Positions 4,168-21,691 of a stretch of DNA of 64,000 nt are shown here, piece by piece. The stretch is taken from contig OZ223269.1 in the NCBI GenBank assembly GCA_965140585.1, positions 715,542 through 779,541 on the forward strand, read 5' to 3'. This stretch comes from Spirochaetia bacterium. Its GTDB lineage: Bacteria; Spirochaetota; Spirochaetia; UBA9216. The first letter of the stretch is position 1, and each line of letters starts with the position of its first letter. The notes below the pieces were generated by a model. That model was not told the origin of the DNA and did no database searches. It worked only from the letters and a program-made list of their open reading frames with translations. The position numbers were made by a program, and so were the translations under genes.

Positions 4168-5640
4168 ATGAGAAAACTTTTACTATTGCTGACAGCGATA
4201 ACTTTGCTGTTCCTGTTCTACAGCTGTCCGACTGGATTGGTTGATACCCCTGAAGATGATGATACAGAAGAAACAGTTTCACGGAATGATGTAACTATTT
4301 TATCAAGTACGTACAGTGATGAAACGGCTGTTATCTTTTACACCGAACCTTCAGATTCTGATTTCTACGCTACTGAGCTGACATTTACACCAACAGTATC
4401 TGGAATTTCGCAGCCTATTGAAATAAAAAAAGGTGAAAGTCTGCTTAGCGGTACTACATCTTTAGGCTATCTGGCAGATTTGAGCAACGATACTGAATAT
4501 ACTCTTACTCTTACCGCTGTTTACAGTGATGATTCAAGTGCCGCCGGAGTTTCGGCTAAAGTTACGCCAATAGCAGATGTCTATCCTCCTGAAAATCTTA
4601 CAGCAGTCAGGGGAGATCAAGAAGTTACTCTAAGCTGGGATGAACCCGCTGATAATAACTGGTTTTATATTAACTTTGAGTTTACACCTGAAGACGGAGG
4701 CTATGAACAACCCTTTGCAATTTTTTCTTCTGAAACAGAATATACTATTGATGGTCTTACAAACGGAACAGAATACACATTTAATGTTTATGCATCAGAT
4801 TTTTTCGATCTTGAATCATCTAAGGTTGAAATCACATCAACACCATCAGCTGATCTTAATCCTCCAGCACTTACTGCTTCATCAGTATTTCTAATAGATG
4901 TTGATATGGATGAGGGGGAACTGGCGGGCACATGTGAAATTGAAATGGCAGCCGATGAAAGTGATATTGAACGTTACAAGCTTTACTGGGGCTCTTCTGA
5001 GACAGTGAAGCTTGATGAGACTGCAATTACATCCATCGATAAAACTGGAGCTGATTTAGAGTATACGTTCTCAGAGAATACGGCCGTACCTTCAGGCGCA
5101 GCATACCTGCTTGTATATACAGAGAATGGGGATGGCGAAACAGCCGTTCCGTTTGCATATGAGCTGAAGGATTTTATTGTAACGCAGGAACCGTATACCG
5201 GTACATTTAATTATCCTGTTGAGATATCTGGAAGTTATTATTCAACAAGATATCCGGATTTGGGAATATTTGAATGGGATGGCACAGATTTCACAGCTAT
5301 GGCAAGTCCTTCTGTAGCCTGGGCTTCTTCTCCCGAAGGATTATCGGCTTTTGGAAACGATTTGATGTTTTGTGCGAGTGATGGCACTTCATCAAGGTTA
5401 TGGAGACTGGATCCTGATGCTGGTACTGCAGGATATATATCCGGTATTGACTCAACATGTCTACCTGGAATTGATTTTGATGGCAGATATTTCTTTTCGA
5501 TGGAAGATCCCACAATAGGTAAATCCTTGTACAGCTGTGACAGTTCAGGAACTGTAGAATTGATTTATGATTGTGATGTGAGCAGCGATTCACAGAGCAC
5601 ATATACTTTATGTGAATTTGATTCAAAACTATTTTTATAG
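4168..5640 (+). CDS. Exported lipoprotein with fibronectin-III-like and ELWxxDGT-type repeats. Probably the N-terminal part of a frameshift-split gene
   Basis: Signal peptide with lipobox (LFLFYSC). Fn3-like segments (LSWDEP...TEYTF). Repeats such as SSRLWRLDPDAG. The ORF ends at a T5 run and the next ORF continues in another frame. Confidence 0.6.
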   Translation: MRKLLLLLTAITLLFLFYSCPTGLVDTPEDDDTEETVSRNDVTILSSTYSDETAVIFYTEPSDSDFYATELTFTPTVSGISQPIEIKKGESLLSGTTSLGYLADLSNDTEYTLTLTAVYSDDSSAAGVSAKVTPIADVYPPENLTAVRGDQEVTLSWDEPADNNWFYINFEFTPEDGGYEQPFAIFSSETEYTIDGLTNGTEYTFNVYASDFFDLESSKVEITSTPSADLNPPALTASSVFLIDVDMDEGELAGTCEIEMAADESDIERYKLYWGSSETVKLDETAITSIDKTGADLEYTFSENTAVPSGAAYLLVYTENGDGETAVPFAYELKDFIVTQEPYTGTFNYPVEISGSYYSTRYPDLGIFEWDGTDFTAMASPSVAWASSPEGLSAFGNDLMFCASDGTSSRLWRLDPDAGTAGYISGIDSTCLPGIDFDGRYFFSMEDPTIGKSLYSCDSSGTVELIYDCDVSSDSQSTYTLCEFDSKLFL

Positions 5641-6431: not shown

Positions 6432-7976
6432 ATGAACGAAGACGCAGAATCAAATTACACCGAAGACGAAATAAATAACTGTATAAATATATTAAAAGCC
6501 CTCTCTGAAAATGCAGATCAGTTAGTTGCTATTCCCAGAGAAACACAGATTGAACTTCTAAAAGCGGCAGGCGCATTGTCCAAACCGGATCATACAGTTC
6601 TAAAGCAGAGAAAAAAAGCAGCCGCGAGAAAAAAACGGCAGGAGACTGTCGCTGATGAACGCGCTGCCCGTGCCGCAACCGGAATACGAAGCGCCCGTGA
6701 AAACATAGTGTTTTCGGCGCCGAGACAGCTGACCTGCGATGAAATTGTTACCGATAAAGACCTTGTTCTAAATTCCCCCCGCAACTGCTATGTATGCAAA
6801 AAAGAATACACTCGAATGCATTTCTTTTATGATGCGATGTGTCCTGAATGCGCCGAACTTAATTACTATAAAAGGTTTCAGACTGCAGATTTACGGGGGC
6901 AGGTTGCGGTTATTACTGGTTCCAGACTTAAAATTGGATATCAGGCAACTTTGATGCTTCTTAGGGCCGGTGCTGAGGTTGTTGCCACCACACGATTTCC
7001 TGTGGATTCCGCTATTCGGTATTCGAAAGAAGCTGATTTTACTGAATGGGGTCATCGTCTGCATGTCTACGGGCTTGATCTGCGTCACACCCCCAGTGTT
7101 GAACTTTTCTGTACTCATATTGCCGACAGGTTTGGACGGCTGGATATACTTATAAACAATGCTGCCCAGACAGTCCGGCGTCCGCCCGGCTTTTACCAGC
7201 ATCTGATGGGTAATGAATTAATGCCGCGGGAGGAGCTTCCTGAAAAAGTCCGAAGCCTTCTTTTTGATTATGAATCCTGCCTTAACCGGATTGAAACATT
7301 TTCACACAGCAGTCATTCAGATGATGCTATTGTTCCGGTGTCCTGGGAGGCCAGAATTCCAGGCCTTGGGATGATTGAATCGGCCAGATTATCGCAGATC
7401 CCGTACGCGTATGAAGACAATCATGAAGTTGAAGCTGTTTTTCCTCAAGGCAAACTGGATGTCGACTTGCAGCAGGTTGATCTGCGAACAACAAACAGCT
7501 GGCGCCTTAAGCTTGGTGAGATTCAGACCTCGGAAATGCTGGAACTCCAGCTTATCAATGCTGTTGCCCCATTTGTACTATGCAATAGGCTTGTCCCTCT
7601 TATGAAAAAAGAAAATACCGGCTGCAAGCATATAATCAATGTTTCCGCCATGGAAGGCAAGTTTATGCGTTTTAAAAAAGGCGAGAGGCATCCGCATACC
7701 AATATGGCAAAAGCAGCGCTTAACATGCTTACGCACACATCCGCCAGCGAACTTGCTGAACATGGAATATATATGAATGCGGTTGATACAGGCTGGGTGA
7801 CTGATGAAGACCCGGCTCAGCTCGCGAAAAAGAAGCAGGAGCTGCACGATTTTCAGCCGCCTCTCGATATAGTAGACGGCGCTGCCCGTGTCTGTGATCC
7901 GCTTTTTGACGGTATAAATACAGGGCGGCACTGGTGTGGAATGTTTCTTAAAGACTACTTTCCGATTGACTGGTAA
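6432..7976 (+). CDS. SDR-family oxidoreductase with a ~150-aa N-terminal extension (basic stretch + Cys4 zinc ribbon)
   Basis: The Rossmann region begins at [19 protein letters not shown] (NNAG-type) motif present. NAVDTGWV sits where the PG motif would be. N-terminus carries [10 protein letters not shown] and C-x2-C...C-x2-C. Confidence 0.65.
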
Positions 7977-8010
7977 ACTGACTGCCGGAACACAGCCGGC
8001 AGTCAGTAGA

Positions 8011-10719
8011 TTATTTTTCGGTAAGGTTGTATACACCATCCCAGTTTGCACGCGGCGGTTCCTTTATATATTTCTCACATCGATCAAGGTAATATAATGA
8101 AGGTCCGTCATCTGATGTAATTTTTAGAGCCTGTCTGAATAACTTTTCTGCTCCTGTCCAGTTTCTATCTTCAAAAGTAGTGAGTCCTTCTTCGAATATC
8201 TGAAGTAATTCCTTTTTCTCTTTTGTAAGCTGTGATTTTTCTTCAACCAGCTCATACAGCCGAACTGGAGTATTTATACCGACTACACGGACGCGGTCTA
8301 GTCTCCTTGTTGCAAACTCTTTACCGACGGCTTCATAGGTTGAATCACTTATAAGCAGCCAGGTTCCGTAGCGTTTGTTCACGCCTTCAAGTCTGGCCGC
8401 CAGATTGACAGCATTGCCCATCATAGTGTAATCCATCTTTTTGGCTGTCCCCATGTTTCCAACAACCATATCGCCAGTATTCAGTCCTATCCTGGTTAAC
8501 AGCGGATTTGGACTTAAATTTTTATCCTCAATTTTTTTATTCATTATCGCTTCAGCTCTCTTCATCTCAATTGAAGCCAGGCATGCCTTATAAGCATGAT
8601 CGGCAAAATCTGTAGGTGCCCCGAAGAATGAAATTATTGCATCACCTTCAAACTTATCAATTGTTCCATGCCTGTCCATAATAATGTCCGACATCTTTGT
8701 TAGATACATATTCAGAAGGTTTACTAAATCGGTTGGATCCATTGCTTCTGAAATTGTTGAAAATCCTTTGACGTCTGTAAAAAGAGCTGTAAGATTCTTT
8801 TTTTCACCGCCAAGATTCAGCTTTTCAGGATTATCCAATAGATCGTTTATAACCTCGTTTGACAAATACTGACCGAAGGCGCTTCTAATAAAGGTTTTTT
8901 CTTTGGATGTAGAAAGGAAGTTTACTATAGTAAGTATTACAAAACTGGATGAAATAGTCATAACAGGAGTAAGTACTGGAAAGTAATTTCCAGTTAAAGA
9001 GAAAACCAGCAGTCCGGAGAAAAATATGAAAATGATGAAACCGAAACCGGTTAGAATTGAAGGTACAGGGTTCAGCATTATCTTGATTCTATAGTAAATA
9101 AGGACAAGAATTACCGCCGCTATAATTGAAACCCATTGAGGGAGAATATCGACAAAATCATGATTAAGAAGAGCATTCGCAATTGATGCATGTGTACCAA
9201 CGTTATCATAGGTTGCATCGAATGGATTTACACCTCGATCAGTGGTCGCCGTGCCGGTCCATCCTAAATAGCATATCGCTCCATCAAGAGTCGACGAAAG
9301 AATTTCACGTGTCTTTATCAGATTGTTTAAAAGTTCGGCAGTTTCTGAAAAGCTGGTTTGGACTGATATCTTGATTTCTGAATATCGTTCTTTTTGAGCT
9401 TCCGGAACATTCGGTGAATCAAGAATCTGGTCAATTCGAGCCACTATACTATTTTCAGCATCACCACCAAGGAAGTTAGCTGTTTCAGTAAAGAAGTAAT
9501 CGCGTATGTGCTGATATTCACTGAACTCTTCAGTATCTCCTGATTCAAGCATATCGCTCTGCAATGACTGGGAGTAGTTATAAATATCAAGGATTGGCAT
9601 ATTCCCCTGATAGTAATTCAGATATCCGGCGTCTTTCATAATTTCAAGATTCTGAACAAGAAGGGTTTCCTGTCTTTTATGAAGTACTAAATAATAGTAG
9701 GAAAGCTGAGTAAAGCTTTCATCAAAATCCTTGCGGGGCCAGTTGATGACGAAATAACCATCTTTATCAAGGGGAATAACGAGATCTAGGCTTTCACCAT
9801 CAGGGAATACAGCATTTTTTAGTACAATCCTGTCTTTATCAGTCTCAATTTCAGGTTCGCCGAGTATCTTATATACGGCCTGAAAACTGAGCTGCGGAAA
9901 AAAAGTATTCTCATATTCCGCTATAAGATTTACTCTGCGTCTTACTCCGTCATTATCAATATGAACATTAGGGAATCCGAGACTCGCTGCATTCATGCTT
10001 ATCTGGTTTACCGCAGGCCGGATATCAATACCTCTTAAAAGTTTTGAATTTTCTTCAGCTCTAACCTTGATGCCCATATTTTCAATTATCCAGTCTTTTA
10101 AATCGGAAGAATATTCGTCCTCTTCCTGGTTGAGTATATTAATTGTAAAAAAGGAGTTTCCGAAATATGCAGCAGCCTGCCCGAAGTAGGTATCATTATC
10201 CCTTGCTACAGATTTTATTTTTTCATAAAGCTCACTTTTAGATGCTATACTCAGGTTATTAAGCTGGGCAACGTATTCAGATGCATCAGAAAGACTTATA
10301 TTTCCTGAGACTATTGCATTAAATAAACCTTCAGTATTACCTGTTATTTCTGCAAACTTTTCATCAAGCGATTTTGGAATTTCATTATATAGAAATTCAC
10401 TGTTCAGACCCATTGGGCTTTCTTCAGTGTACTCAATATCAAATACTGCATACTTAGCGCCCATTTCCTTCATAAGAATGAGGCCATCTGCCATGATTGC
10501 CCGGCTCCATGGAAACATCCCCACTTTTGCAATAGCAAGATCGTCAATATTAAGAAGAACGATGTTATCTTTCTCTTCCGGTCCTGGAGTCATTTTCATA
10601 TAGAGATCCATAAAAAAATGTTCACCATCCCTGTAGAAGGTAAAAATATTCATTAAAGAGAATAAGATTACGAAGGCCACAGGAATAAGAAAGGCTTTTT
10701 GCAGATGTTTTATATTCAT
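8011..10719 (-). CDS. Membrane-bound class III adenylate/guanylate cyclase with a CHASE2-like extracytoplasmic sensor region and a C-terminal TPR-like tail
   Basis: 902 aa. N-terminal TM helix, ~450-aa periplasmic region, then a multi-TM block. Cyclase core follows: FTDVKGFST...DKFEGDAIISFFGAP...GLNTGDMVVGNMG. Confidence 0.8.
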   Translation of the reverse strand: MNIKHLQKAFLIPVAFVILFSLMNIFTFYRDGEHFFMDLYMKMTPGPEEKDNIVLLNIDDLAIAKVGMFPWSRAIMADGLILMKEMGAKYAVFDIEYTEESPMGLNSEFLYNEIPKSLDEKFAEITGNTEGLFNAIVSGNISLSDASEYVAQLNNLSIASKSELYEKIKSVARDNDTYFGQAAAYFGNSFFTINILNQEEDEYSSDLKDWIIENMGIKVRAEENSKLLRGIDIRPAVNQISMNAASLGFPNVHIDNDGVRRRVNLIAEYENTFFPQLSFQAVYKILGEPEIETDKDRIVLKNAVFPDGESLDLVIPLDKDGYFVINWPRKDFDESFTQLSYYYLVLHKRQETLLVQNLEIMKDAGYLNYYQGNMPILDIYNYSQSLQSDMLESGDTEEFSEYQHIRDYFFTETANFLGGDAENSIVARIDQILDSPNVPEAQKERYSEIKISVQTSFSETAELLNNLIKTREILSSTLDGAICYLGWTGTATTDRGVNPFDATYDNVGTHASIANALLNHDFVDILPQWVSIIAAVILVLIYYRIKIMLNPVPSILTGFGFIIFIFFSGLLVFSLTGNYFPVLTPVMTISSSFVILTIVNFLSTSKEKTFIRSAFGQYLSNEVINDLLDNPEKLNLGGEKKNLTALFTDVKGFSTISEAMDPTDLVNLLNMYLTKMSDIIMDRHGTIDKFEGDAIISFFGAPTDFADHAYKACLASIEMKRAEAIMNKKIEDKNLSPNPLLTRIGLNTGDMVVGNMGTAKKMDYTMMGNAVNLAARLEGVNKRYGTWLLISDSTYEAVGKEFATRRLDRVRVVGINTPVRLYELVEEKSQLTKEKKELLQIFEEGLTTFEDRNWTGAEKLFRQALKITSDDGPSLYYLDRCEKYIKEPPRANWDGVYNLTEK

Positions 10720-10783
10720 AAAAAAATTATAATTTTTAGGTTTTCAAATTGCAAATCATTTTTGGTTACATACAATTAATAAT

Positions 10784-11233
10784 ATGAACAATAGAAAAAA
10801 TTTTTTACTAATATTGATGATAGCGACAGTTGGAGTTGTCTTCTCTCAATCAAATGATCTGATTGACGAAACACTTTCACAGATACAACTGAGCTGTGGT
10901 AACGGTGCATATCTTGCACTTACCGCTGCAGGTTTGATCAGCGAAAACTCAACAGATGAAGAAGCTGTGTCCTTTTTAAAACAGGAAGGCTGGATTGGAA
11001 AATCACGCAGTGCTGATGAGCCAATGACTCTTGGTGAATACTCACTGGCCTTAATGAAAAGCTTCTCAATGCCGGGAGGTATAATGTATACAATCTTCCC
11101 ATCAGCACGATACGCTTCAAGAGAGTTAGGGTATCTAGGTTACATCAGCAAGGATTCCGGAGCCTATCGCAGTTTGAGTGGTAGTGAAGCAGTATCCATT
11201 CTCGGTCAGATTATAAGGAGCAGAAGCAAATGA
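10784..11233 (+). CDS. Small exported protein of unknown function (first gene of the exported-protein operon)
   Basis: 149 aa with an N-terminal signal peptide and no recognised domain. Its stop overlaps the next start (ATGA). Confidence 0.5.
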   Translation: MNNRKNFLLILMIATVGVVFSQSNDLIDETLSQIQLSCGNGAYLALTAAGLISENSTDEEAVSFLKQEGWIGKSRSADEPMTLGEYSLALMKSFSMPGGIMYTIFPSARYASRELGYLGYISKDSGAYRSLSGSEAVSILGQIIRSRSK

Positions 11234-12519
11234 CGAAACGAACAATAATTTTTCTGTTACTTATTCGTGTGACGGTAATGGGTATCAGCGCTGCCGATTT
11301 CGGGTTAACTACAGATGCTACTTCTTCACTGCCGTATACCAGCGGGACAGATATCGACTGGACTGGTCTGACTTATACAGTAAAAAGCGCGCTCTGGGCA
11401 AACGGACGGCTAAGCGATGAATTGACTGGGGAAGTTCAGGGAGGATTTACGATAACTGAAAGCCGTGTTTTCCTGTTGGAACTCGATCAGCTTCAGCTTG
11501 CCGGAAGTTTTATTTTACCGGGATCCCCTGCAGGAGCGCTTTCTTTTAAAGCCGGGCGTATTTCTTTTTCTGAATTCTCGGGCAAGGTTTTTGTGCATAC
11601 GGGGGATGGAATCAGTTTTGAATATGGACTGCCCGGTATGAGTATGTCAGCTTTCGGAGCTTATACCGGACTACTGCAGGGACCTTCATCGACCATCTTG
11701 ATGAATAATTCGGATGTTGCCGCTCAGGCAGTAACCCCCTTGCCATTATGGGGTCCGCTTTCTTCTCCACGAATTGTAGAGGGTGTTTCATTTACATTTC
11801 CTGAGCTCTTTGCTCAGCAGACTCTTATTCTGACAGGTATTTTTCAGCAGGATATGAGGCCGGTTGACGAATTCGTAACCGGTGATTCAGCAATAAATAC
11901 ATTCTATGCAGGATTCGGGCTTATGGGGCCGATTCAGCCGGTCGCTTCACTCTTCTACAGTATATACGGATACGGTAATACCGGCTGGTATGGCAGCAAT
12001 ACTATCCTTTCATACATTGCTGGTGGCGGAATAAATTATCTTATGCCTAAGTTCCTTTCGTCACGGTTTGCACTTGAATTTACTTATTCAAGCGGTGATG
12101 CCGATCAGTCTGTTTTTTACGAAGGAAATACTGCAGGTTATTCAAACTCCTTCATTCCTATAACCCCGGCTCCTGCCGGTTTGGTATTTACCGCTCAGCA
12201 GACAAATCTCTTTTATTTGAGCTGCGGCTATTCAATCAAACCGTTTTCTATGACTGGTAGTGCCGCTCTGCAGAATACAGTGGTTCTTCTGAAAGGCATT
12301 GGTTTTTTCAGGAGCACAACGGGGGCAATAAGCACTGGCGGAGTAAAAACCGGAGAAACTGGACTGTATCTTGGTACAGAGGCAGATTTAAGTATAATGG
12401 CAAGGTTTCTGTCTGATTTAGGCTTTTCATTGTCGGGCGGAGTCTTCTTTCCGTCAGATATAATGGAGACTACTTCGCCTCAGATTAAAGCAACTGTAGC
12501 TGTATCATTATCGATGTAG
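11230..12519 (+). CDS. Exported protein, possibly an outer-membrane beta-barrel
   Basis: 429 aa with signal peptide. Aromatic/Gly-rich alternating hydrophobic pattern (YSIYGYGNTGWYG...). Translationally coupled to the upstream gene. Confidence 0.45.
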   Translation: MTKRTIIFLLLIRVTVMGISAADFGLTTDATSSLPYTSGTDIDWTGLTYTVKSALWANGRLSDELTGEVQGGFTITESRVFLLELDQLQLAGSFILPGSPAGALSFKAGRISFSEFSGKVFVHTGDGISFEYGLPGMSMSAFGAYTGLLQGPSSTILMNNSDVAAQAVTPLPLWGPLSSPRIVEGVSFTFPELFAQQTLILTGIFQQDMRPVDEFVTGDSAINTFYAGFGLMGPIQPVASLFYSIYGYGNTGWYGSNTILSYIAGGGINYLMPKFLSSRFALEFTYSSGDADQSVFYEGNTAGYSNSFIPITPAPAGLVFTAQQTNLFYLSCGYSIKPFSMTGSAALQNTVVLLKGIGFFRSTTGAISTGGVKTGETGLYLGTEADLSIMARFLSDLGFSLSGGVFFPSDIMETTSPQIKATVAVSLSM

Positions 12520-12541
12520 CAGAATAAACGGAGGAAAAGTA

Positions 12542-13501
12542 ATGAAAACATTCAGATTCTATTTAATAATTATATGTCTTGTTTTTATAACGAATTTTTT
12601 ATATAGCACAGATTTAAAGGCCATTGTACAGGAAGCGAACGGTAAGGTTGAAGTAAAAAGAGGAGGCGCGGCATGGGAATCGGTAAAGGTTGGTGATATT
12701 TTGTCTTCCGGAGACAGTATTTCAACCGGTTTTAACTCAAAAGCCGTGCTCGTCCTGGGCGATACCTCAGTCCTTGTAGCGAAGGATCTTACAAGGCTTA
12801 CGCTTGCCGAACTATATGAGAAGGAAGGAACGGTTGTGACCGATCTTTTTCTCGATATAGGAAATATTAGGGCTGAGGTTCATTCAAGCGATGAAGTTTC
12901 CAACGATTTTCAAGTTAGGAACGCCAATTCGACCGCATCGGTCAGGGGGACGGTCCTCGATGTTGCAATACTCGGCGACGGCCGGGGGATGAAAGTAATG
13001 GCTTGGGATGGTATGGCTCTGGTTACGGACATCCGTTCTGGTAGAAAGGCTCAGGTTGGAGAAGCTAAAAAGAAGAAGGATGAAAAAGCCGGCCAGGATT
13101 CCGAAGAATCCGGAGACGGAGAAAGTGAAGATAGCGGGAGTGGAGAATCCGGTTCTGATGATGGAACAGATTCTGAAGGCGGCGGGTCAGGTGCGGACAG
13201 CGAAACTGGAGCAGCAAATATGGGAATGCCTTCGGAACCTCCGGCGGAAATAGCTGCAGCGCCGCTTATGGCAAGCGGGAATGGTGGCGGAATGGTGTCG
13301 TCCATGGCTTCTGCAATAGCAGCATCAACCGTAACAGTAAGTACTAAACCTCCTTCACCTGCAGTTATTTCTACCGGCGGTGGTACCTCGGCATCGACTG
13401 AAACAGCAGCGGCAGCCGTAGTTGAAGAAATAATCGGAGGAACAACACTTCCTGTAATTACAACTAGCTCTGTAAGCATTCAGGTTGTATGGCCGGAATA
13501 G
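12542..13501 (+). CDS. FecR-domain exported protein with acidic G/S/E/D low-complexity linker and Ser/Thr/Ala-rich C-terminus
   Basis: 319 aa. N-terminal TM/signal segment. FecR-like beta-sandwich region (VEVKRGGAAWESVKVGDIL...AVLVLGDTSVLV). Then KKKKDEKAGQDSEESGDGESEDSGSGESGSDDGTDSEGGGSG. Confidence 0.6.
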   Translation: MKTFRFYLIIICLVFITNFLYSTDLKAIVQEANGKVEVKRGGAAWESVKVGDILSSGDSISTGFNSKAVLVLGDTSVLVAKDLTRLTLAELYEKEGTVVTDLFLDIGNIRAEVHSSDEVSNDFQVRNANSTASVRGTVLDVAILGDGRGMKVMAWDGMALVTDIRSGRKAQVGEAKKKKDEKAGQDSEESGDGESEDSGSGESGSDDGTDSEGGGSGADSETGAANMGMPSEPPAEIAAAPLMASGNGGGMVSSMASAIAASTVTVSTKPPSPAVISTGGGTSASTETAAAAVVEEIIGGTTLPVITTSSVSIQVVWPE

Positions 13502-13520
13502 GCTGGCAAGGTTGAACCGA

Positions 13521-14834
13521 ATGAAAACAAGACTAAATTTAATTATTTTAATAATTACAGTTATCCTGATTGGCTCCTGTAATCCGCTTATTATAGAGGA
13601 GCCTAATCTTAGCTATGTATCAATAGATACAGGGATAACACTTGGCTTTGCTGGCAGTAGGGCTTCTGTGAGTGATGTGGCATCTTTCCGACTAAAGGTT
13701 GAAGCTTCGGACATGGAAGAAATTGAGCAGACTTACACCGAAAGTATTATTAACATAAAAGTGGAAGCCGGAAGCGGACGAACTTTTACACTGACAGCTT
13801 TTGATGCAATCGGAAACAATCTGTTTTCCGGTAGCAGTAAAGTTGATCTTGTTGCAGGACAATCTGCTGAAATAGTTATAACAATGGATTATTCCGGTTT
13901 CTACGTCATTTTCAACACTAACGGTGGAGGAACCATCTCGACAAAGTATGTTGAAAGCGGTGGAATCCTGACTACTCCAACAGTACCTGTAAAAACAGGT
14001 TATGCATTTGGAGGTTGGTATTCAGATGCTGACTTTATTGCATTATGGAACTTCAGTACAGATACAGTTAATTCTGATGTAACTCTGTATGCCAAATGGA
14101 CTGCAAACACATATTCTTTAACCTTTGATGGTAACGGTTCTTCCGGTGGAGCAATGACAAACCTTTCTGTTGATTATGATGGGACTGTTTCTCTGACATC
14201 CAACGGATATACTTTAACTGGGTATACGTTTATAGGATGGAACACTGCAAGTAATGGATCAGGCATTTACTATGCTGATACTGCCAGCTATACACATACA
14301 ACAGCAGGAAACATTACTCTATATGCTCAGTGGCAGGTTCTTCCAAGTCTGAATTTTATCCAGACTGATGTTCTTGGTAGTACATCGCCTTATACAGGAT
14401 GGAACTGGACGCGATATAATGATACTGTTAATTCAAATAGTTTTTTGATTACACCCAGCAGCTCTGCAAATTATTATACTATAGAGGTTTCTGATGGTAC
14501 TGAAACTGTATTTACAAGTATTCAGCTTTATGATACCGGAAACTGGAGTACCGCTACAATTAATTTCTATGCTTATTCTAACGGAGTTCAAACCGGTTCT
14601 GAAACTTATACAGGCGATGTTCCATATGCAACTGGGGGATATAAACATACTTTCAGTGATACAGCTTTCAGTAATGCCGATATGATAGTTATTCAACCGT
14701 TGCAATCTGATGGAACATCCCCGACTCCTATATGTCTTGATGATATTATTACCGATTTGTTTGGTACGATAGATTTTGAAACAACAACCGGGCTAAGCGG
14801 GACTAGTACACCAACCGTGACTTATACACCTTAA
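13521..14834 (+). CDS. Lipoprotein carrying Listeria-Bacteroides (Flg_new-type) repeats. Paralog of 14970..16073
   Basis: Start chosen at MKTRLNLIILIITVILIGSC (lipobox); the track ORF begins 36 nt earlier. Repeats of the form TGYAFGGWYSDADF...VTLYAKWTANTYSLTFDGNGSSGG...YTFIGWNTASNGSG...ITLYAQW. Confidence 0.65.
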   Translation: MKTRLNLIILIITVILIGSCNPLIIEEPNLSYVSIDTGITLGFAGSRASVSDVASFRLKVEASDMEEIEQTYTESIINIKVEAGSGRTFTLTAFDAIGNNLFSGSSKVDLVAGQSAEIVITMDYSGFYVIFNTNGGGTISTKYVESGGILTTPTVPVKTGYAFGGWYSDADFIALWNFSTDTVNSDVTLYAKWTANTYSLTFDGNGSSGGAMTNLSVDYDGTVSLTSNGYTLTGYTFIGWNTASNGSGIYYADTASYTHTTAGNITLYAQWQVLPSLNFIQTDVLGSTSPYTGWNWTRYNDTVNSNSFLITPSSSANYYTIEVSDGTETVFTSIQLYDTGNWSTATINFYAYSNGVQTGSETYTGDVPYATGGYKHTFSDTAFSNADMIVIQPLQSDGTSPTPICLDDIITDLFGTIDFETTTGLSGTSTPTVTYTP

Positions 14835-14856
14835 TTTTAAGTATTAAAATTCAAAT

Positions 14857-14892
14857 CAGGGGATATCTGAAAATATCAGGTGTCCCCTTTTG
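14857..14892 (+). terminator. Putative intrinsic terminator between the two paralogous lipoprotein genes
   Basis: AGGGGA...TCCCCT stem containing an inner hairpin, followed by TTTTG. Confidence 0.4.
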
Positions 14893-14969
14893 AATAATCA
14901 TTATTGAATTAAAATTAATTATACGTCTGTATTTTTCTGTTATCAGTATCTTTATACAGAGGAGAGCTA

Positions 14970-16073
14970 ATGAAAACAAAACCGTTTTTAATATTTATAA
15001 TAATTGTGGTTATTATAGCCGGTTCCTGTAGTCCTTTTATCATGGAGGAGATTAATCTAAGCAAAGTATCGATAGATACCGGAATAATGCTTTCATCTGC
15101 CGGCAGCAGGGCTGCAGCAGGCGATGTGGTTTTATTCCGGCTAAAAGTGGAAGCGGATGACATGGAAACTATTGAAAAAGAATTCACAGAGAGTGAGATA
15201 AGCCTTGATGTGAAAGCCGGCGCTTCACGCACATTTACCCTGGAGGCTCTTGATGCAGATGACAACAAACTATTCTCCGGTGGTTCTACGAAAACTTTGA
15301 CTGCCGGTCAGTCTGTTTCAGTTAGTATAACGATGGATTATTCTGGTTTTTATGTCAGTTTTAATACAGACGGAGCAGGAACCATCTCGACGCAGTATGT
15401 TGCAAGCGGCGGACTTGTAACTGCACCGACAGAACCTGTAAAAACAGGATACACATTCGGCGGCTGGTATACAGATGCTGCCTTTACTACAGCTTGGAAT
15501 TTGGCTTCAAGTATTGTCAATTCTGATATAACGCTTTATTTGAAATGGAATCTTCTTGCAGTCGGGAACATTGGACCAAGCGGAGGTTATGTTTTTTACG
15601 ACAAGGGAGCATATTCTGACGGTTGGCGTTATATTGAAGCCTACCCAGTAGATTTATATAATTCAATTGCCGCTGATTATTGGTTTTACTTTGCAAATGC
15701 TCAAAATGGTTATGATGTTACAACAACTACATCAGCAATTGGCTCTGGTTTGGAAAATACTGCATTAATAGTGGCACAAAGGGAAACAGCAAATCCTTCA
15801 ATTGATTCCAATACAGCAGCTCAAGTATGTGATACCGCTAACAGTTACGGTTATTCTGATTGGTTCCTGCCCTCGTATAATGAGCTATACTTGATGTATT
15901 CAGAATTGCATTTAAACAGTTTAGGATCCTTTACTGATACATCATACTGGAGTTCAACAGATACAGAGAATGACGATTGTGCATGGGCATTAAATTTTTC
16001 AAACGGGTCAGGCGCTTCCGGTGGGAACTGGCATTCGAACGGCGGTTATGTGAGGCCTGCAAGACGATTTTGA
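14970..16073 (+). CDS. Lipoprotein with the shared N-terminal module and a C-terminal DUF1566 (Lcl C-terminal) domain
   Basis: 367 aa. Lipobox IIAGSC with RBS GGAGAG. The first ~190 aa are ~65% identical to 13521..14834. C-terminus carries YSDWFLPSYNELYLMY...YWSSTD...AWALNFSNGSG...GYVRPAR (DUF1566 signature). Confidence 0.7.
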   Translation: MKTKPFLIFIIIVVIIAGSCSPFIMEEINLSKVSIDTGIMLSSAGSRAAAGDVVLFRLKVEADDMETIEKEFTESEISLDVKAGASRTFTLEALDADDNKLFSGGSTKTLTAGQSVSVSITMDYSGFYVSFNTDGAGTISTQYVASGGLVTAPTEPVKTGYTFGGWYTDAAFTTAWNLASSIVNSDITLYLKWNLLAVGNIGPSGGYVFYDKGAYSDGWRYIEAYPVDLYNSIAADYWFYFANAQNGYDVTTTTSAIGSGLENTALIVAQRETANPSIDSNTAAQVCDTANSYGYSDWFLPSYNELYLMYSELHLNSLGSFTDTSYWSSTDTENDDCAWALNFSNGSGASGGNWHSNGGYVRPARRF

Positions 16074-16122
16074 TTCTTGATGAATAAACAGAACCGGATT
16101 GAAATAGAAGGACAGGTATCCT

Positions 16123-16153
16123 TTCGTAAAATGATTTCAGCAGGTTGAATACT
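16123..16153 (+). terminator. Hairpin (10-bp stem GATTTCAGCA/TGCTGAAATC), possible terminator or attenuator
   Basis: Perfect inverted repeat in the intergenic region 16074..16189. The downstream T-tract is weak. Confidence 0.3.
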
Positions 16154-16189
16154 TGCTGAAATCTGTATTTACATTTAAAAATAAAGGGA

Positions 16190-17239
16190 ATGAATATCAA
16201 GACTAAAAAAATAATTCTCGTTGTTCTTCTTATTGTTATCCTTGCTTCAATACTTTATTTTGGGCTTAAATCTCATGGAAGTTTTTTGTTTAATAATATC
16301 GAAGCAAACGGAAAAGACGGGTTGATAATTAGTAATTATTCGATAATATTTACAGAAAGCGGAATCCTGCCGAATTTCCCTGAGAAGGATTGTTTTTCGA
16401 TATCAATATCTTTCAAGGCAGAAAGCTTAACTGAAAAAAGATTTCAATTTATAATGGTTGTGACGGACGGAAATCCACAAAAGCAGTTTCTTGTAGGGCA
16501 GTATCTTGATACTCTTGTAATCATGAACGGAACAGATTACGGCAACTATAAACGTGAACCGAAAATATATCTGAAAATGGATGAGTCTGCGGAAGAGATC
16601 CTGCTGGAAATTGAATCTGCTCATAACAATATAAATATCAGCTTTAACGGAAAATCAGTGAAAAAGTCAGAGAGTATCGGTTTTTCACTACCTCTGGATA
16701 CAAATAAGGCAAGGCTGATACTTGGAAACAGTCCATCAGGACGTAATCCATGGGCTGGAACTATAAAAAATATTGAAATATTCAATTTCGGTGAGACAAA
16801 TCCTGTGCTTGCATATTCTTTTAACAGTACAATAAGAAATAATCAAATATTGCCGTCTTCCGGTAATTATCCACTTGTTATTCCTGAAATGATAAAAGAA
16901 TTGTATCCGGTTTATCTTCAGTTTCCGGGAGCGGAAATTTTATTTTCGAAAAATCTTCAGCGTGATGTGATAATAAATCTTATTGGGTTTATACCGCTCG
17001 GTTTAATTTTAACTCCAGGATGGTATTTATTCACTAAAAGGAAGTACGGATTCTTGATAGTTGTTTTTATATCATTTGGAACTAGCTTTTTTATAGAGAT
17101 CAGTCAGGTATTGATACCTGGACGCAATTCATCATCACTCGATCTTCTTTTGAATACAGCCGGCGGATGTTTGGGTTATTTATTATTTAATACATATTCA
17201 AAAATTAGAGAGCATTTCGAAAGCCTGAAAGCTGGATAA
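16190..17239 (+). CDS. Membrane protein with N-terminal TM anchor, LamG/concanavalin-like region and a C-terminal VanZ-like domain
   Basis: 349 aa. C-terminal PLGLILTPGWYLF...FIEISQVLIPGRNSSSLDLLLNTAGGCLGYLLF is VanZ-like. Confidence 0.5.
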   Translation: MNIKTKKIILVVLLIVILASILYFGLKSHGSFLFNNIEANGKDGLIISNYSIIFTESGILPNFPEKDCFSISISFKAESLTEKRFQFIMVVTDGNPQKQFLVGQYLDTLVIMNGTDYGNYKREPKIYLKMDESAEEILLEIESAHNNINISFNGKSVKKSESIGFSLPLDTNKARLILGNSPSGRNPWAGTIKNIEIFNFGETNPVLAYSFNSTIRNNQILPSSGNYPLVIPEMIKELYPVYLQFPGAEILFSKNLQRDVIINLIGFIPLGLILTPGWYLFTKRKYGFLIVVFISFGTSFFIEISQVLIPGRNSSSLDLLLNTAGGCLGYLLFNTYSKIREHFESLKAG

Positions 17240-17251
17240 AGCAGGTATGAA

Positions 17252-17276
17252 AGGGCTGACTTTAACCGTCAGCCCT
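17252..17276. terminator. Hairpin AGGGCTGAC-TTTAACC-GTCAGCCCT between convergent genes
   Basis: 9-bp perfect stem. Flanking A/T tracts are weak on both strands. Confidence 0.35.
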
Positions 17277-17295
17277 GAATAAATAATTGGTAAAC

Positions 17296-18730: not shown

Positions 18731-21691
18731 ATGAATCTTGAAGAACTGAGATTTTACTATGACAAATTTAAATACGGTGAAGATAACTTTCATAATCTGA
18801 TGCAGTACCGCGTTAAAGAGATACTTCTTATTTCTACTTTCTACGATGCTTACATATTTGAGCATGATTCTCTTCTTTCAGAGCAGATAGTTGGTGAGTA
18901 TCACCAGCTTAACCTGACAACTGTGCCGAGAATCACCAGCACGCCTACCGGTGCTGATGCGCTTAACCTGCTTCGTGAAAGACGTTTTGATCTTGTAATC
19001 ACAACTCTGAGGACAGGTGAAGAGAGCAGTTTTGAACTATCTGCCAAGATTAAGGAAGTGCAGCCTGATGTTCCTGTAATACTGCTTTTAACGGTGCAGT
19101 CTGATATAGCCCTAGTAAACAGAAACCGGAACAGGCTTGAGCATATCGAGAATATATTTCTATGGAACGGAGATTCAAAGCTTATTCTCGCAATGATAAA
19201 GTTTATCGAGGATAAGAAAAATGCTCCCTATGATACTGAACATGGCCTGGTTAAGGTTATACTGCTGGTTGAAGATTCAATTAACTTCATCTCGATATAT
19301 CTGCCTCTGCTGTATACCGAGATCATGGAGCAGACTCAGAGGCTTATTTCCGAAGAGCTGAATGACAACCAGAAATACAACCGGATGCGTACGAGGCCTA
19401 AGGTAATAGTTACTGACAGTTACGAAAAAGGTGTGGAGCTTTATGAACAGTACCAGGAGCATATTCTTTGCGTCATGTCTGATATGGAATTTTATAAAGA
19501 TAATGCGCTGGATGGAGACGCCGGAATTAAATTCCTTGGCAAGATCAGAAATGAGAATCCTGACATGCCCTGTATTCTGCAGTCGTCAGTACTGACAAAC
19601 AGGAGGAGGGCTGAGCAGCTTGGCGTTAATTTCTTTCATAAACAGTCACAGTTTCTTCTGAAAGATCTGCGGAATTTCATTATCGAAAATCTGGGCTTCG
19701 GTGACCTGGTTTTCAGGGATGAAGACGGCGGTGAAATAGCGAGGGCCAGAAATCTGGGTGATTTTGAAAGAATCATTCCTGAGCTTCCCCTGGAATCACT
19801 GCTGAGTCACAGCCGGAAAAAGGATTTCTCATCATGGCTGATTGCGCATGGAGAAATGCAGCTTGCACGTATTCTGCGTCCGGTCGAAGCAGAAGATTTT
19901 AATAACTATGATACATATCGCAAGTATCTGCTTCAGCAGTTTATGAAGCTGCGTCGTATGAGAAACCGCGGAAAGATAGTCAGCCTTAATCTCGAAAGTT
20001 TAAAGAATGACGGTGTAATCAATCGAATCGGTTCTGGCTCTCTAGGCGGAAAGGGCCGTGGACTTGCTTTTTTCAATTCATTTCTCGTAACGACCGAGTT
20101 TGAAAATAAATTTAAGGATGTTCTGGTTAAAATTCCAAGAACAACCATCATCGGAACTTCGGTGTTCAGTGATTTTGTAAATGAAAACAACCTTTTTGAA
20201 CTCAGGAACAGTCCAGATGACGAAGATATCAAACATAAATTTGTAGCTGGAAAGCTCTCGCCGTTTGTTATTGAAAGACTGATGCTTTTTCTTGAAGAAG
20301 TCAGGGTTCCCCTGGCAGTACGTTCCTCGGGGCTTCTGGAAGATTCACAGTCTCAGCCCTTTGCCGGTGTTTATCAGACATACATGATTCCAAATAATGA
20401 TAACAGCATTGAGCAGCGCCTGAAACAGCTTACAAATGCTATAAAACTCGTTTATTCATCCGTATTTTTAAATAACACCCGGAAGTACATTGAAAATCTT
20501 AACTACCTCATTGAGGAAGAGCGAATGGCCGTAGTAATACAGGAAGTCGTAGGGCGTACATATGACAGCTATTATTACCCGCATGTTTCCGGTGTAGGGC
20601 AGTCGTTTAATTACTATCCACTGGGAAATATGAAAAATACTGATGGAGTTGCTTCGATTGCCGTGGGTCTTGGGCAGGCTGTCGTTGACGGTGAGAAGAA
20701 CTATAGATTCTGTCCGGAATATCCTACTGTTTCGTATCTTTCCGATGAGGAGATTGTAAAGTCTACGCAGACTCATTTCTATGCGATAGATCTGGATAAA
20801 AAAGATACTGACATCCTGAAGGGCGAATATGAAACACTCTCCAGGCTGCGCGTGAATGTTGCCGAAAAGCACCGGAATCTTTATCACATGGCATCAGTCT
20901 GGGATTCTCAAAACCAGAGGATGGTGGATGGTATCAGTTCGCCCGGGCCCAGAGTAATTAATTTTGCAAATATTCTGAAATACAATGTATTCCCCCTCTC
21001 AGATATTGTTAAAGAAGTTCTTGAGATGGCACAGGCTGCACTTGGAGTTCCTGTTGAAATTGAATTTGCTGTTGATTTAACTAAAACTACTGATGAACTG
21101 CCGTCCTTTTATCTGCTTCAGGTTCGTCCTATGACAGTTAATCTTGATGAGGCTTGTATCGATTTTAAAAGTCTTGATAAGGATGATTTGATTCTCTATA
21201 CAGAGGAAGGGCTTGGAAACGGGCTCATCGATGATATCAGGGATATAATTTTCATAGCCCCGGAGGATTTTGATAATACAAAGACTATGGAAATGCAGCT
21301 GGAAATTGAAATGCTCAACGATAAGATGAAAGAAGCGGGTAGGGAATACATCCTTATTGCTCCCGGACGCTGGGGTTCACGTGACAGATTTCTCGGAATT
21401 CCTGTTTTGTGGTCTCAAATAAGCAAAGCCAGGGTAATTGTTGAGGTTGGACTTGAAAATTTTGATATTGAACCCTCACAGGGTACTCATTTTTTTCATA
21501 ATGTCGTTGCAATGAATATTGGCTATTTTAATGTTCCTCATAAGAAGAAAAAAAGGTCAAATATTGATTGGAATCACATAAAAAGCTTTAAAGGTGCTGT
21601 AAAGTATCAATATTTCACGCATATTGTGAATGATACACCATTTAAAGTTATCATGGATGGTAAAAACTCTATGTCTATCATACAAAAGTAA
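18731..21691 (+). CDS. Multi-domain signalling protein: pseudo-receiver + canonical receiver domain fused to a PEP/pyruvate-binding (PPDK_N, ATP-grasp) kinase-like domain
   Basis: 986 aa. Second receiver has LLVEDS, SDMEFY (phospho-Asp), PCILQSS and K. Then GSGSLGGKGRGLAFF glycine-rich loop and ATP-grasp-like core. C-terminal PGRWGSRD...GIPVLW resembles a swivel domain but has no His. Confidence 0.6.
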   Translation: MNLEELRFYYDKFKYGEDNFHNLMQYRVKEILLISTFYDAYIFEHDSLLSEQIVGEYHQLNLTTVPRITSTPTGADALNLLRERRFDLVITTLRTGEESSFELSAKIKEVQPDVPVILLLTVQSDIALVNRNRNRLEHIENIFLWNGDSKLILAMIKFIEDKKNAPYDTEHGLVKVILLVEDSINFISIYLPLLYTEIMEQTQRLISEELNDNQKYNRMRTRPKVIVTDSYEKGVELYEQYQEHILCVMSDMEFYKDNALDGDAGIKFLGKIRNENPDMPCILQSSVLTNRRRAEQLGVNFFHKQSQFLLKDLRNFIIENLGFGDLVFRDEDGGEIARARNLGDFERIIPELPLESLLSHSRKKDFSSWLIAHGEMQLARILRPVEAEDFNNYDTYRKYLLQQFMKLRRMRNRGKIVSLNLESLKNDGVINRIGSGSLGGKGRGLAFFNSFLVTTEFENKFKDVLVKIPRTTIIGTSVFSDFVNENNLFELRNSPDDEDIKHKFVAGKLSPFVIERLMLFLEEVRVPLAVRSSGLLEDSQSQPFAGVYQTYMIPNNDNSIEQRLKQLTNAIKLVYSSVFLNNTRKYIENLNYLIEEERMAVVIQEVVGRTYDSYYYPHVSGVGQSFNYYPLGNMKNTDGVASIAVGLGQAVVDGEKNYRFCPEYPTVSYLSDEEIVKSTQTHFYAIDLDKKDTDILKGEYETLSRLRVNVAEKHRNLYHMASVWDSQNQRMVDGISSPGPRVINFANILKYNVFPLSDIVKEVLEMAQAALGVPVEIEFAVDLTKTTDELPSFYLLQVRPMTVNLDEACIDFKSLDKDDLILYTEEGLGNGLIDDIRDIIFIAPEDFDNTKTMEMQLEIEMLNDKMKEAGREYILIAPGRWGSRDRFLGIPVLWSQISKARVIVEVGLENFDIEPSQGTHFFHNVVAMNIGYFNVPHKKKKRSNIDWNHIKSFKGAVKYQYFTHIVNDTPFKVIMDGKNSMSIIQK

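Follow-up and report, generated by a model that had tools for sequence, protein, structure and literature searches.

What does a block of genes for exported proteins do beside the gene of an inner-membrane cyclase in a spirochaete? The block lies at 10784-17239 of a stretch of 64,000 nucleotides (nt) from a Spirochaetia bacterium (contig OZ223269.1), hereafter called the window, whose own coordinates are used throughout. An original prediction, made from the sequence alone, had described it as a seven-gene operon of exported and surface proteins forming a cell-envelope sensing or adhesion module. The open reading frame (ORF) list of the cluster contains six genes, consecutive as predicted and all on the + strand, which we call g1 to g6; related loci and proteins carry numbers such as L001 and P0160. 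With the divergent upstream neighbour, which lies outside the predicted coordinates, they are (lengths in amino acids, aa):

8011-10719, - strand: CHASE2-domain class III adenylate cyclase, 902 aa (Pfam CHASE2 92.9 bits, Guanylate_cyc 75.7 bits)
10784-11233, + strand: g1, 149 aa; signal peptide, no Pfam match
11230-12519, + strand: g2, 429 aa; signal peptide, weak Alginate_exp match
12542-13501, + strand: g3, 319 aa; secreted, FecR domain
13521-14834, + strand: g4, 437 aa from an ATG start; lipoprotein with two Flg_new repeats
14970-16073, + strand: g5, 367 aa; lipoprotein with Flg_new and Lcl_C (former DUF1566)
16190-17239, + strand: g6, 349 aa; N-terminal transmembrane helix, VanZ domain, sub-threshold LamG match

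Judged from gene order, the core g1-g4 is genetically tied to the divergent CHASE2 adenylate cyclase, which is likely the output enzyme of the system. We hold with about even confidence that g1-g4, together with g5, a duplicated and diversified lipoprotein, would form the outer-membrane (OM) and periplasmic signal-input arm of this inner-membrane cyclase. OM-assisted CHASE2 signalling and the FecR-CHASE2 pairing are already known. As far as we found, the four-part split architecture, an S-layer homology (SLH)-fold subunit in Spirochaetota and the exchange of a cassette beside a fixed cyclase have no earlier description.

Related loci were collected by scanning a genome collection with the g1 alignment as seed, and their genes were assigned by a hidden Markov model scan, giving 53 Spirochaetota loci. 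The gene contexts of g2 homologues reveal a recurring cassette, seen in Spirochaetota only, which comprises a small protein (~150 aa), a barrel (~425 aa), a FecR protein (220-325 aa) and then one to several lipoproteins. The small protein-barrel-FecR order is present in all of the 53 loci having enough downstream DNA. The barrel was found in 52 of the 53 and the FecR protein in 47, every miss corresponding to a contig-end cut (the six loci lacking FecR have less than 1.4 kb of downstream DNA each). A CHASE2 cyclase adjoins the cassette in 32 of the 53 loci: 28 cyclases are divergent and upstream, 2 convergent and downstream (L042, L046) and 2 co-directional right after FecR (L048, L057). Because three different orientations were found, the linkage has survived rearrangement. 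Two further loci end in cyclase fragments. When the count is restricted to the 22 loci with at least 3 kb of upstream and 6 kb of downstream DNA (full-flank loci), the cyclase is adjacent in 14. If a genome of a few Mb encodes a handful of these cyclases, we roughly estimate that adjacency by chance would amount to a few percent. L008 and L034 are two paralogous cassettes on one contig, each with its own cyclase. In the window itself the cyclase gene and g1 diverge from a 64-nt spacer. The original suggestion of envelope sensing, not metabolism, is supported and is sharpened by a cyclase linkage that it did not mention.

Variants of the arrangement were seen in individual loci. In L004, the first cassette is followed by another barrel-FecR-lipoprotein set (10001-13699) that lacks a small SLH-like gene of its own; both barrels may share a single g1, or the added set may function without one. 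In L059, from a Treponema metagenome-assembled genome (MAG), a dCache hybrid histidine kinase (HisKA, HATPase, REC; 6585-9761, - strand) is divergent from the cassette, in the position taken by the cyclase in other loci. The kinase could be an alternative output, or its position a coincidence. No cassette was present at the one L. interrogans cyclase locus that we inspected.

The window was then compared with L002, a syntenic locus from a Spirochaetia MAG. By blastn, the two are 89-95% identical up to 10737 and again from 17286, with patches of 65-74% between. At base level both junctions are sharp: the left one falls inside the 64-nt spacer and the right one just past the hairpin that follows g6. 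The resulting island and the protein identities with L002 are:

10738-17283, no strand assigned: replaced or hypervariable island (g1-g6, the g1 promoter and the terminal hairpin)
six flanking proteins (PanB-like, FolD, FTHFS, adh_short, M20 amidohydrolase, RR-PPDK_N): 96-100% identity
CHASE2 cyclase: 94.6% identity
g1: 53% identity
g2: 58% identity
g3: 66% identity
g4 and g5, against the single L002 lipoprotein: 37-40% identity
g6: 41% identity

Since the cassette is at 37-66% against flanks at 96-100%, and since both junctions are sharp, the simplest reading of the alignment is that the whole block would have been replaced as a unit, by recombination in the conserved flanks. The original coordinates match this real unit almost exactly, although the reason offered for them was another one. 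Diversifying selection acting in situ on surface loops fits less well and was rejected, given the sharp outer junctions and the even divergence of the barrel (55% identity in strands, 53% in loops and 43% in turns). The L001 cyclase is 70% identical to that of the window, yet the L001 cassette is as near to the window cassette as that of L002. Among ~15 billion public proteins the six island proteins are singletons at 90% identity, the exception being a 54-aa fragment that clusters with g5. Within the block the best-conserved part is the N-domain of g3 (74% identity, against 32% for the linker), which fits the proposed arrangement, in which this domain would have to work with a cyclase that has not changed.

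A second strain-specific surface-protein difference lies near the island. The segment 4094-6328, absent from the otherwise 95%-identical L002, contains an ORF (4168-5640, + strand) whose 490-aa product has an fn3 domain and an N-terminus of lipoprotein type (…LFLFYSC).

The first two proteins of the cassette would be partners. The AlphaFold2 (AF2) model of g2, with a predicted local distance difference test score (pLDDT) of 90.8 and a predicted template modelling score of 0.84, is an 18-strand beta barrel, in agreement with the beta-barrel-like exported protein of the original prediction. Its best Foldseek match in the PDB is AlgE (3rbh; E 1e-17, TM-score 0.67-0.70) at 12-14% sequence identity, followed by OprD/Occ channels, MOMP, chitoporin and OmpM1. 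Searching the PDB with the g2 family profile gave one meaningful match, the Veillonella OmpM1 barrel (E 0.002). The Pfam Alginate_exp match (PF13372) scores 17.8 bits, under the cut-off of 25.2. An exact look-up of the g2 product (also as P0001) returned no contig on record.

The AF2 model of g1 (pLDDT 91.5) is all helical, and its best 15 Foldseek matches are SLH domains, 15 out of 15. By sequence, no Pfam match to SLH was obtained at E up to 10 for 22 members of the family, a search of the PDB with the g1 profile found no SLH chain, and the TRAE-type motif of SLH domains is not recognisable in the family. We classify g1, solely from predicted structure, as a divergent family of the SLH fold that has an invariant motif of its own, RYASRELG.

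The g1 and g2 genes overlap in the window, and they overlap or lie 4 nt apart in L001-L004 and L006. Domains were inspected in the best 150 of the 1548 representatives of the barrel family (clusters at 50% identity). Among these, P0160 (578 aa) is a fusion: a g1-type domain at 14-157 (E 1e-44) is followed by a 6-aa linker and by the mature barrel at 164-578 (E 7e-126), which has no signal peptide of its own. Identical P0160 proteins occur in two independent assemblies, an NCBI MAG and a JGI metagenome (L065 3037-4773 and L066 3047-4783), and both copies have a divergent CHASE2 cyclase alongside and FecR downstream. Because of this fusion and of the translational coupling, a physical association of g1 and g2 is very likely. 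We propose that g1 is a putative anchor of the barrel to the cell wall. A different extension was found in L011 (8001-10391), where P0128 (768 aa) combines a barrel with an N-terminal region of ~356 aa giving no Pfam match; a separate g1-type gene lies upstream.

The g3 protein scores 30.8 bits against Pfam FecR (cut-off 24), so that the predicted FecR domain is upheld. Its N-terminal FecR beta-sandwich (~24-172) is joined by an acidic Gly/Ser linker to a conserved segment rich in Pro, Ala and Ser, and the chain closes with a C-terminal strand, VSIQVVWPE, that is conserved too. Among orthologues the FecR domain is conserved and the linker variable; the strand follows the pattern V-x-I-Q-V-x-W-P-[E/D/Q], in a looser form in distant homologues. 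Pfam and a hydrophobicity scan detected no anti-sigma domain and no transmembrane anchor in g3, and its signal peptide is of the cleavable type. The FecR-family profile retrieved nothing from the PDB at E up to 1.

As had been predicted, g4 and g5 are paralogous lipoproteins with different C-termini. They are 64% identical over their first 193 residues, carry lipoboxes at residues 16-20 (LIGSC in g4, IAGSC in g5) and have unrelated C-termini. Two Flg_new repeats were found in g4 (105.6 bits), whose C-terminal 157 aa match nothing in Pfam, and one Flg_new repeat plus Lcl_C in g5. The genes that follow FecR in other loci also encode lipobox-type N-termini. A domain of ~125 aa right behind the lipobox is common to the lipoproteins after FecR, g4 and g5 included. 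Their C-terminal modules vary: Flg_new, Lcl_C, fn3, Big_2, PPC, LamG, CarboxypepD_reg, beta-propeller-like, GLUG, DUF1565 or none recognisable, and beta-helix modules also occur on cassette lipoproteins outside the window. These lipoproteins are often encoded in tandem arrays, g4 and g5 being one such pair.

The g6 protein had been described as a LamG-like/VanZ membrane protein. The C-terminal VanZ domain was confirmed (PF04892, 61.3 bits, cut-off 30.1), whereas the LamG part was not, Laminin_G_3 scoring 19.6 bits against a cut-off of 27.6. The protein starts with a transmembrane helix followed by an extracytoplasmic domain, and transmembrane-like windows were seen. Among L001-L059, a g6 homologue stands beside the cassette only in L002 and L008. 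The gene belongs to the replaced island but is no member of the conserved cassette.

Export was assessed with a heuristic based on charge and hydrophobicity, not with a dedicated predictor. All six proteins have the basic and hydrophobic N-terminus expected of exported proteins, and the same heuristic was passed by 39 of 40 g2, 19 of 22 g1 and 56 of 57 g3 homologues.

How could these parts work together? Next to a CHASE2 cyclase gene of S. meliloti pSymB, the ORF directly upstream, which overlaps the cyclase start, encodes 1219 aa with a FecR domain at 85-179 (57.5 bits), TPR at ~400-606 and a C-terminal region, an architecture that we reconstructed from the pSymB DNA. We take this ORF (L060:3301-6957) to be NsrA, from its position and size, nsrA being the gene directly before cyaK. 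NsrA is described as an OM beta-barrel protein, with its barrel at residues 600-1200, and the CHASE2 cyclases CyaK and CyaD1/D2 need it to perceive a signal, the NsrA-dependent stimulus being an external protein signal (PMC7529298, PMC13001267). The architecture of the 1219-aa ORF agrees with the published barrel position, and the spirochaete cassette therefore looks like a split, elaborated counterpart. Both systems encode an OM barrel and a FecR domain right beside a CHASE2 class III cyclase. NsrA is a single chain of ~1219 aa with TPR, whereas the FecR domain and the barrel of the window are separate proteins; g1-g6 contain no TPR detectable by Pfam, and add variable lipoproteins and an SLH-fold subunit of which NsrA has no equivalent. 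The original statement that none of the proteins has a characterised homologue holds at the level of sequence families; NsrA-CyaK is nevertheless a characterised precedent for the function, and folds are now predicted for two of the proteins, SLH for g1 and AlgE-like for g2.

In the arrangement that we favour, g2 would span the outer membrane as an 18-strand barrel. The g1 protein, made in a fixed ratio with g2 through the ATGA coupling, would dock on the barrel and hold it to peptidoglycan or to a wall polymer. The domain pattern suggests that g4 and g5 could dock by their shared N-terminal domain and expose interchangeable C-terminal modules as antennae that bind ligands or surfaces. Through its conserved tail and C-terminal strand, g3 may be tethered to the OM complex, its long flexible linker allowing the FecR domain to reach the periplasmic CHASE2 domain, at roughly residues 40-520 of the cyclase, and thereby alter the synthesis of cyclic AMP (cAMP); this step is drawn from the gene linkage and from the analogy with NsrA-CyaK. 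Lineages would exchange the sensing block g1-g6 as a cassette and keep the cyclase in place. A more specific version sees the island as an exchangeable 'sensor head' on a fixed cAMP cyclase, with a wall-anchored barrel, polymorphic lipoprotein antennae for surfaces, cells or macromolecules and a FecR transducer, lineages swapping whole heads by recombination. We advance this version tentatively and regard it as rather doubtful. If it were true, head swaps would change specificity or escape phage or predator recognition at constant output, and the cassette would provide the first SLH-based link between OM and cell wall in Spirochaetota.

FecR and CHASE2 genes are paired elsewhere as well, in Burkholderiales and P. 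aeruginosa (PMC5192318) and in Campylobacterota cyclase clusters (PMC9239204). The CHASE2 histidine kinase operons of the former and the clusters of the latter resemble the window in placing a secreted FecR-domain protein beside a CHASE2 sensor. They differ in their output domains and partners (DUF4136, a TPR protein, a phosphodiesterase); the Burkholderia operon has no barrel or lipoprotein, and its wall-binding LysM module is on the FecR protein itself, whereas the SLH fold of the window is on a partner protein. What CHASE2 senses has been described as unknown (PMC5192318). This sensor domain is widespread, and in its only worked example, NsrA-CyaK, the stimulus is received at the outer membrane. 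With its 1548 barrel clusters, the cassette would be a modular, phylum-wide version of that arrangement. Its parts are separate genes, so that anchor, pore, transducer and antenna can each be deleted, swapped or co-purified singly. It is also a sharply bounded envelope locus, apparently swapped by recombination, beside a conserved signalling enzyme.

Several observations weigh against the cassette being the input arm of the cyclase. The NsrA-CyaK analogy is one of architecture, not homology of whole systems: aligned with the g2 barrel profile, the ORF at the NsrA position obtains an hhalign probability of 0.1, and the two barrels have no detectable sequence similarity. In S. meliloti, the separate FecR-domain protein SMc02177 is not needed for signal perception (PMC5498481), and we found no report in the literature of a direct FecR-CHASE2 contact in any system. 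Eight of the 22 full-flank loci have no adjacent cyclase (L011, L015, L028, L045, L052-L054 and L059), several of them treponemal (Treponema or Treponemataceae); at L045, from T. primitia ZAS-10, no cyclase lies within about 10 kb. A cassette can therefore exist unlinked, and perhaps cyclase-free. Finally, the cyclase does not co-vary with the cassette between the window and L002 (95% against 37-66% identity), and the tight co-evolution expected of a highly specific interface is therefore not seen.

These points leave room for other explanations. The eight loci without a cyclase would suit a structural role, in which g1 and g2 form a split OmpM/Slp-type SLH-porin that staples the OM to the wall and passes solutes, FecR and the lipoproteins being accessory and the cyclase regulatory or incidental. 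The predicted SLH fold of g1 and the OmpM1 barrel, the sole meaningful match of the barrel profile in the PDB and also one of the structural matches, point the same way, as does P0160, where an SLH-like module and an OM barrel are fused in the order found in OmpM (Veillonella parvula OmpM1, PDB 8bys/8bym). The resemblance has limits. The parts are two genes in the window, there is no coiled-coil stalk (P0160 has a linker of 6 aa), and the TRAE-type motif is unrecognisable. The g2 barrel is predicted to have 18 strands and is closest to AlgE, whereas OmpM1 is a 16-strand general porin (PMC10628300). The g1 protein alone would form the whole three-pronged SLH fold, as in the single-chain triple-SLH domains of monoderm bacteria; that of OmpM is assembled from one domain per chain over three chains (PMC10628300). 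A housekeeping tether is not expected in several paralogous copies per genome, with constant FecR and lipoprotein followers, with a cyclase linked in three orientations or with wholesale replacement between near-identical genomes. We therefore consider a purely structural role unlikely. An SLH-fold protein tied to an OM barrel bears on how the OM and the wall are connected in spirochaetes. It is unexpected in Spirochaetota, because a survey of OM tethering systems lists OmpA as the sole such system there (bioRxiv 10.1101/2021.05.31.446380).

Wholesale replacement of a block is in turn typical of surface-exposed loci, and Flg_new, Lcl_C, fn3, Big_2 and LamG are modules characteristic of adhesins, so the barrel might export or hold variable lipoproteins that act as adhesins, with FecR as a periplasmic chaperone or tether. 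Leptospira, of the same phylum, offers Lsa33 and LipL45, with FecR domains, and Lsa25, with DUF1566, which share domains with g3 and g5; Lsa33 and Lsa25 bind laminin in vitro (PMC3444417). The g3 protein matches the NCBIfam Lsa33 model at E 5e-14, but far under its cut-off (scores of 52 vs 420, 21 vs 350 and 17 vs 260 for the Lsa33, LipL45 and Lsa25 models), and Lsa33 is a predicted lipoprotein, unlike g3. Display of adhesins leaves the recurrent cyclase linkage and the conserved FecR domain unexplained, and the divergence of the barrel is even, not concentrated in loops. As a full account we judge it quite unlikely; adhesion and sensing are compatible and do not exclude each other. The AlgE match (TM-score ~0.68, the same number of strands, a weak Alginate_exp hit) would alternatively make g2 a polysaccharide export pore. 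Sequence identity is low, the Pfam score is sub-threshold, and no glycosyltransferase, polymerase, AlgK-like or Wza/Wzc gene was found among the neighbours in the window or at those related loci that we inspected. We rejected alginate-type export on these grounds of gene context and domains, as very improbable. The logic of FecA-FecR-FecI, from an OM barrel to a periplasmic FecR-domain protein and on to an inner-membrane or cytoplasmic output, is shared by the window, and the Pfam FecR domain of g3 is all that recalls the classical iron system. The cleavable signal peptide of g3, with neither cytoplasmic anti-sigma domain nor membrane anchor, and the lack of any gene for an extracytoplasmic function (ECF) sigma factor or a TonB-dependent transducer nearby, both in the window and in L001-L006, speak against it, the presumed output here being cAMP made by the CHASE2 cyclase. 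With its defining features absent, the chance of a classical Fec system is close to nil and it was rejected.

A possible relative in T. pallidum deserves mention. The gene tp0485 may encode an adenylate cyclase; if so, the order tp0483-tp0485 would match the co-directional cassettes L048 and L057. If the treponemal relatives of the cassette were to include tp0483-tp0484, the reading of a long-disputed 'fibronectin-binding adhesin' would change. TPASS_0484 has been called a FecR protein in an in-silico study (PMC4403809), and Tp0483 is a 374-aa 'fibronectin-binding' protein whose OM location is disputed (PMC10118025).

Finally, we examined the layout and expected transcription of the cluster. 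The signals found are:

10749-10776, + strand: sigma-70-like promoter of g1 (TTGCAA, 16 nt, TACAAT; promoter scan)
14849-14895, + strand: terminator-like hairpin with U-tract after g4 (-25.9 kcal/mol, z -6.26)
16133-16163, + strand: perfect 13-bp hairpin with weak U-tract after g5 (terminator scan; -21.0 kcal/mol, z -6.84)
17252-17276, no strand assigned: GC-rich 9-bp hairpin between the convergent g6 and M20 amidohydrolase genes (-17.8 kcal/mol, z -3.8)

The junctions from g1 to g4 are all tight. The ATGA overlap of the g1 stop and g2 start is present at 11230-11233 as announced, the g2-g3 gap measures 22 nt instead of the 23 nt given before, and g3 and g4 are separated by 19 nt with the ATG start of g4, which the public gene call also picks. 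An alternative TTG start at 13485, overlapping g3, was judged less likely. Good Shine-Dalgarno sequences precede g2 and g3. Short or overlapping junctions had been predicted throughout; they end at g4, the g4-g5 and g5-g6 spacers being 135 and 116 nt long. As no credible additional ORF was found in either, the seventh gene of the original prediction is ruled out. Each of the two spacers contains one strong hairpin, that after g4 ending in UUUU and being equalled by none of 200 shuffles. Because strong hairpins follow g4 and g5, a single simple operon is doubtful, and g6 moreover is found with the cassette only in the window and in the relative nearest to it. The signals make it more likely that there are three transcription units, [g1-g4], [g5] and [g6], with partial read-through. 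An Rfam scan of the whole window gave no match.

A distance of 7 nt separates the end of the -10 hexamer from the ATG of g1, and no Shine-Dalgarno sequence precedes this gene, so that its mRNA is probably leaderless. This geometry of promoter and start recurs in L001-L004, TTGCAA being kept within otherwise diverged DNA. The public gene call of g1 (P0045) starts at the internal Met-12 and gives 138 aa, so that the basic N-terminal end of the signal peptide is lost; a start at 10784, giving 149 aa, agrees better with the promoter and with the orthologues.

Outside the island, 18731-21691 (+ strand) encodes a 986-aa protein of unusual signalling architecture, in which a response-regulator receiver is combined with PPDK_N (phosphoenolpyruvate-utilising, ATP-binding), and which is 97.7% identical in L002.

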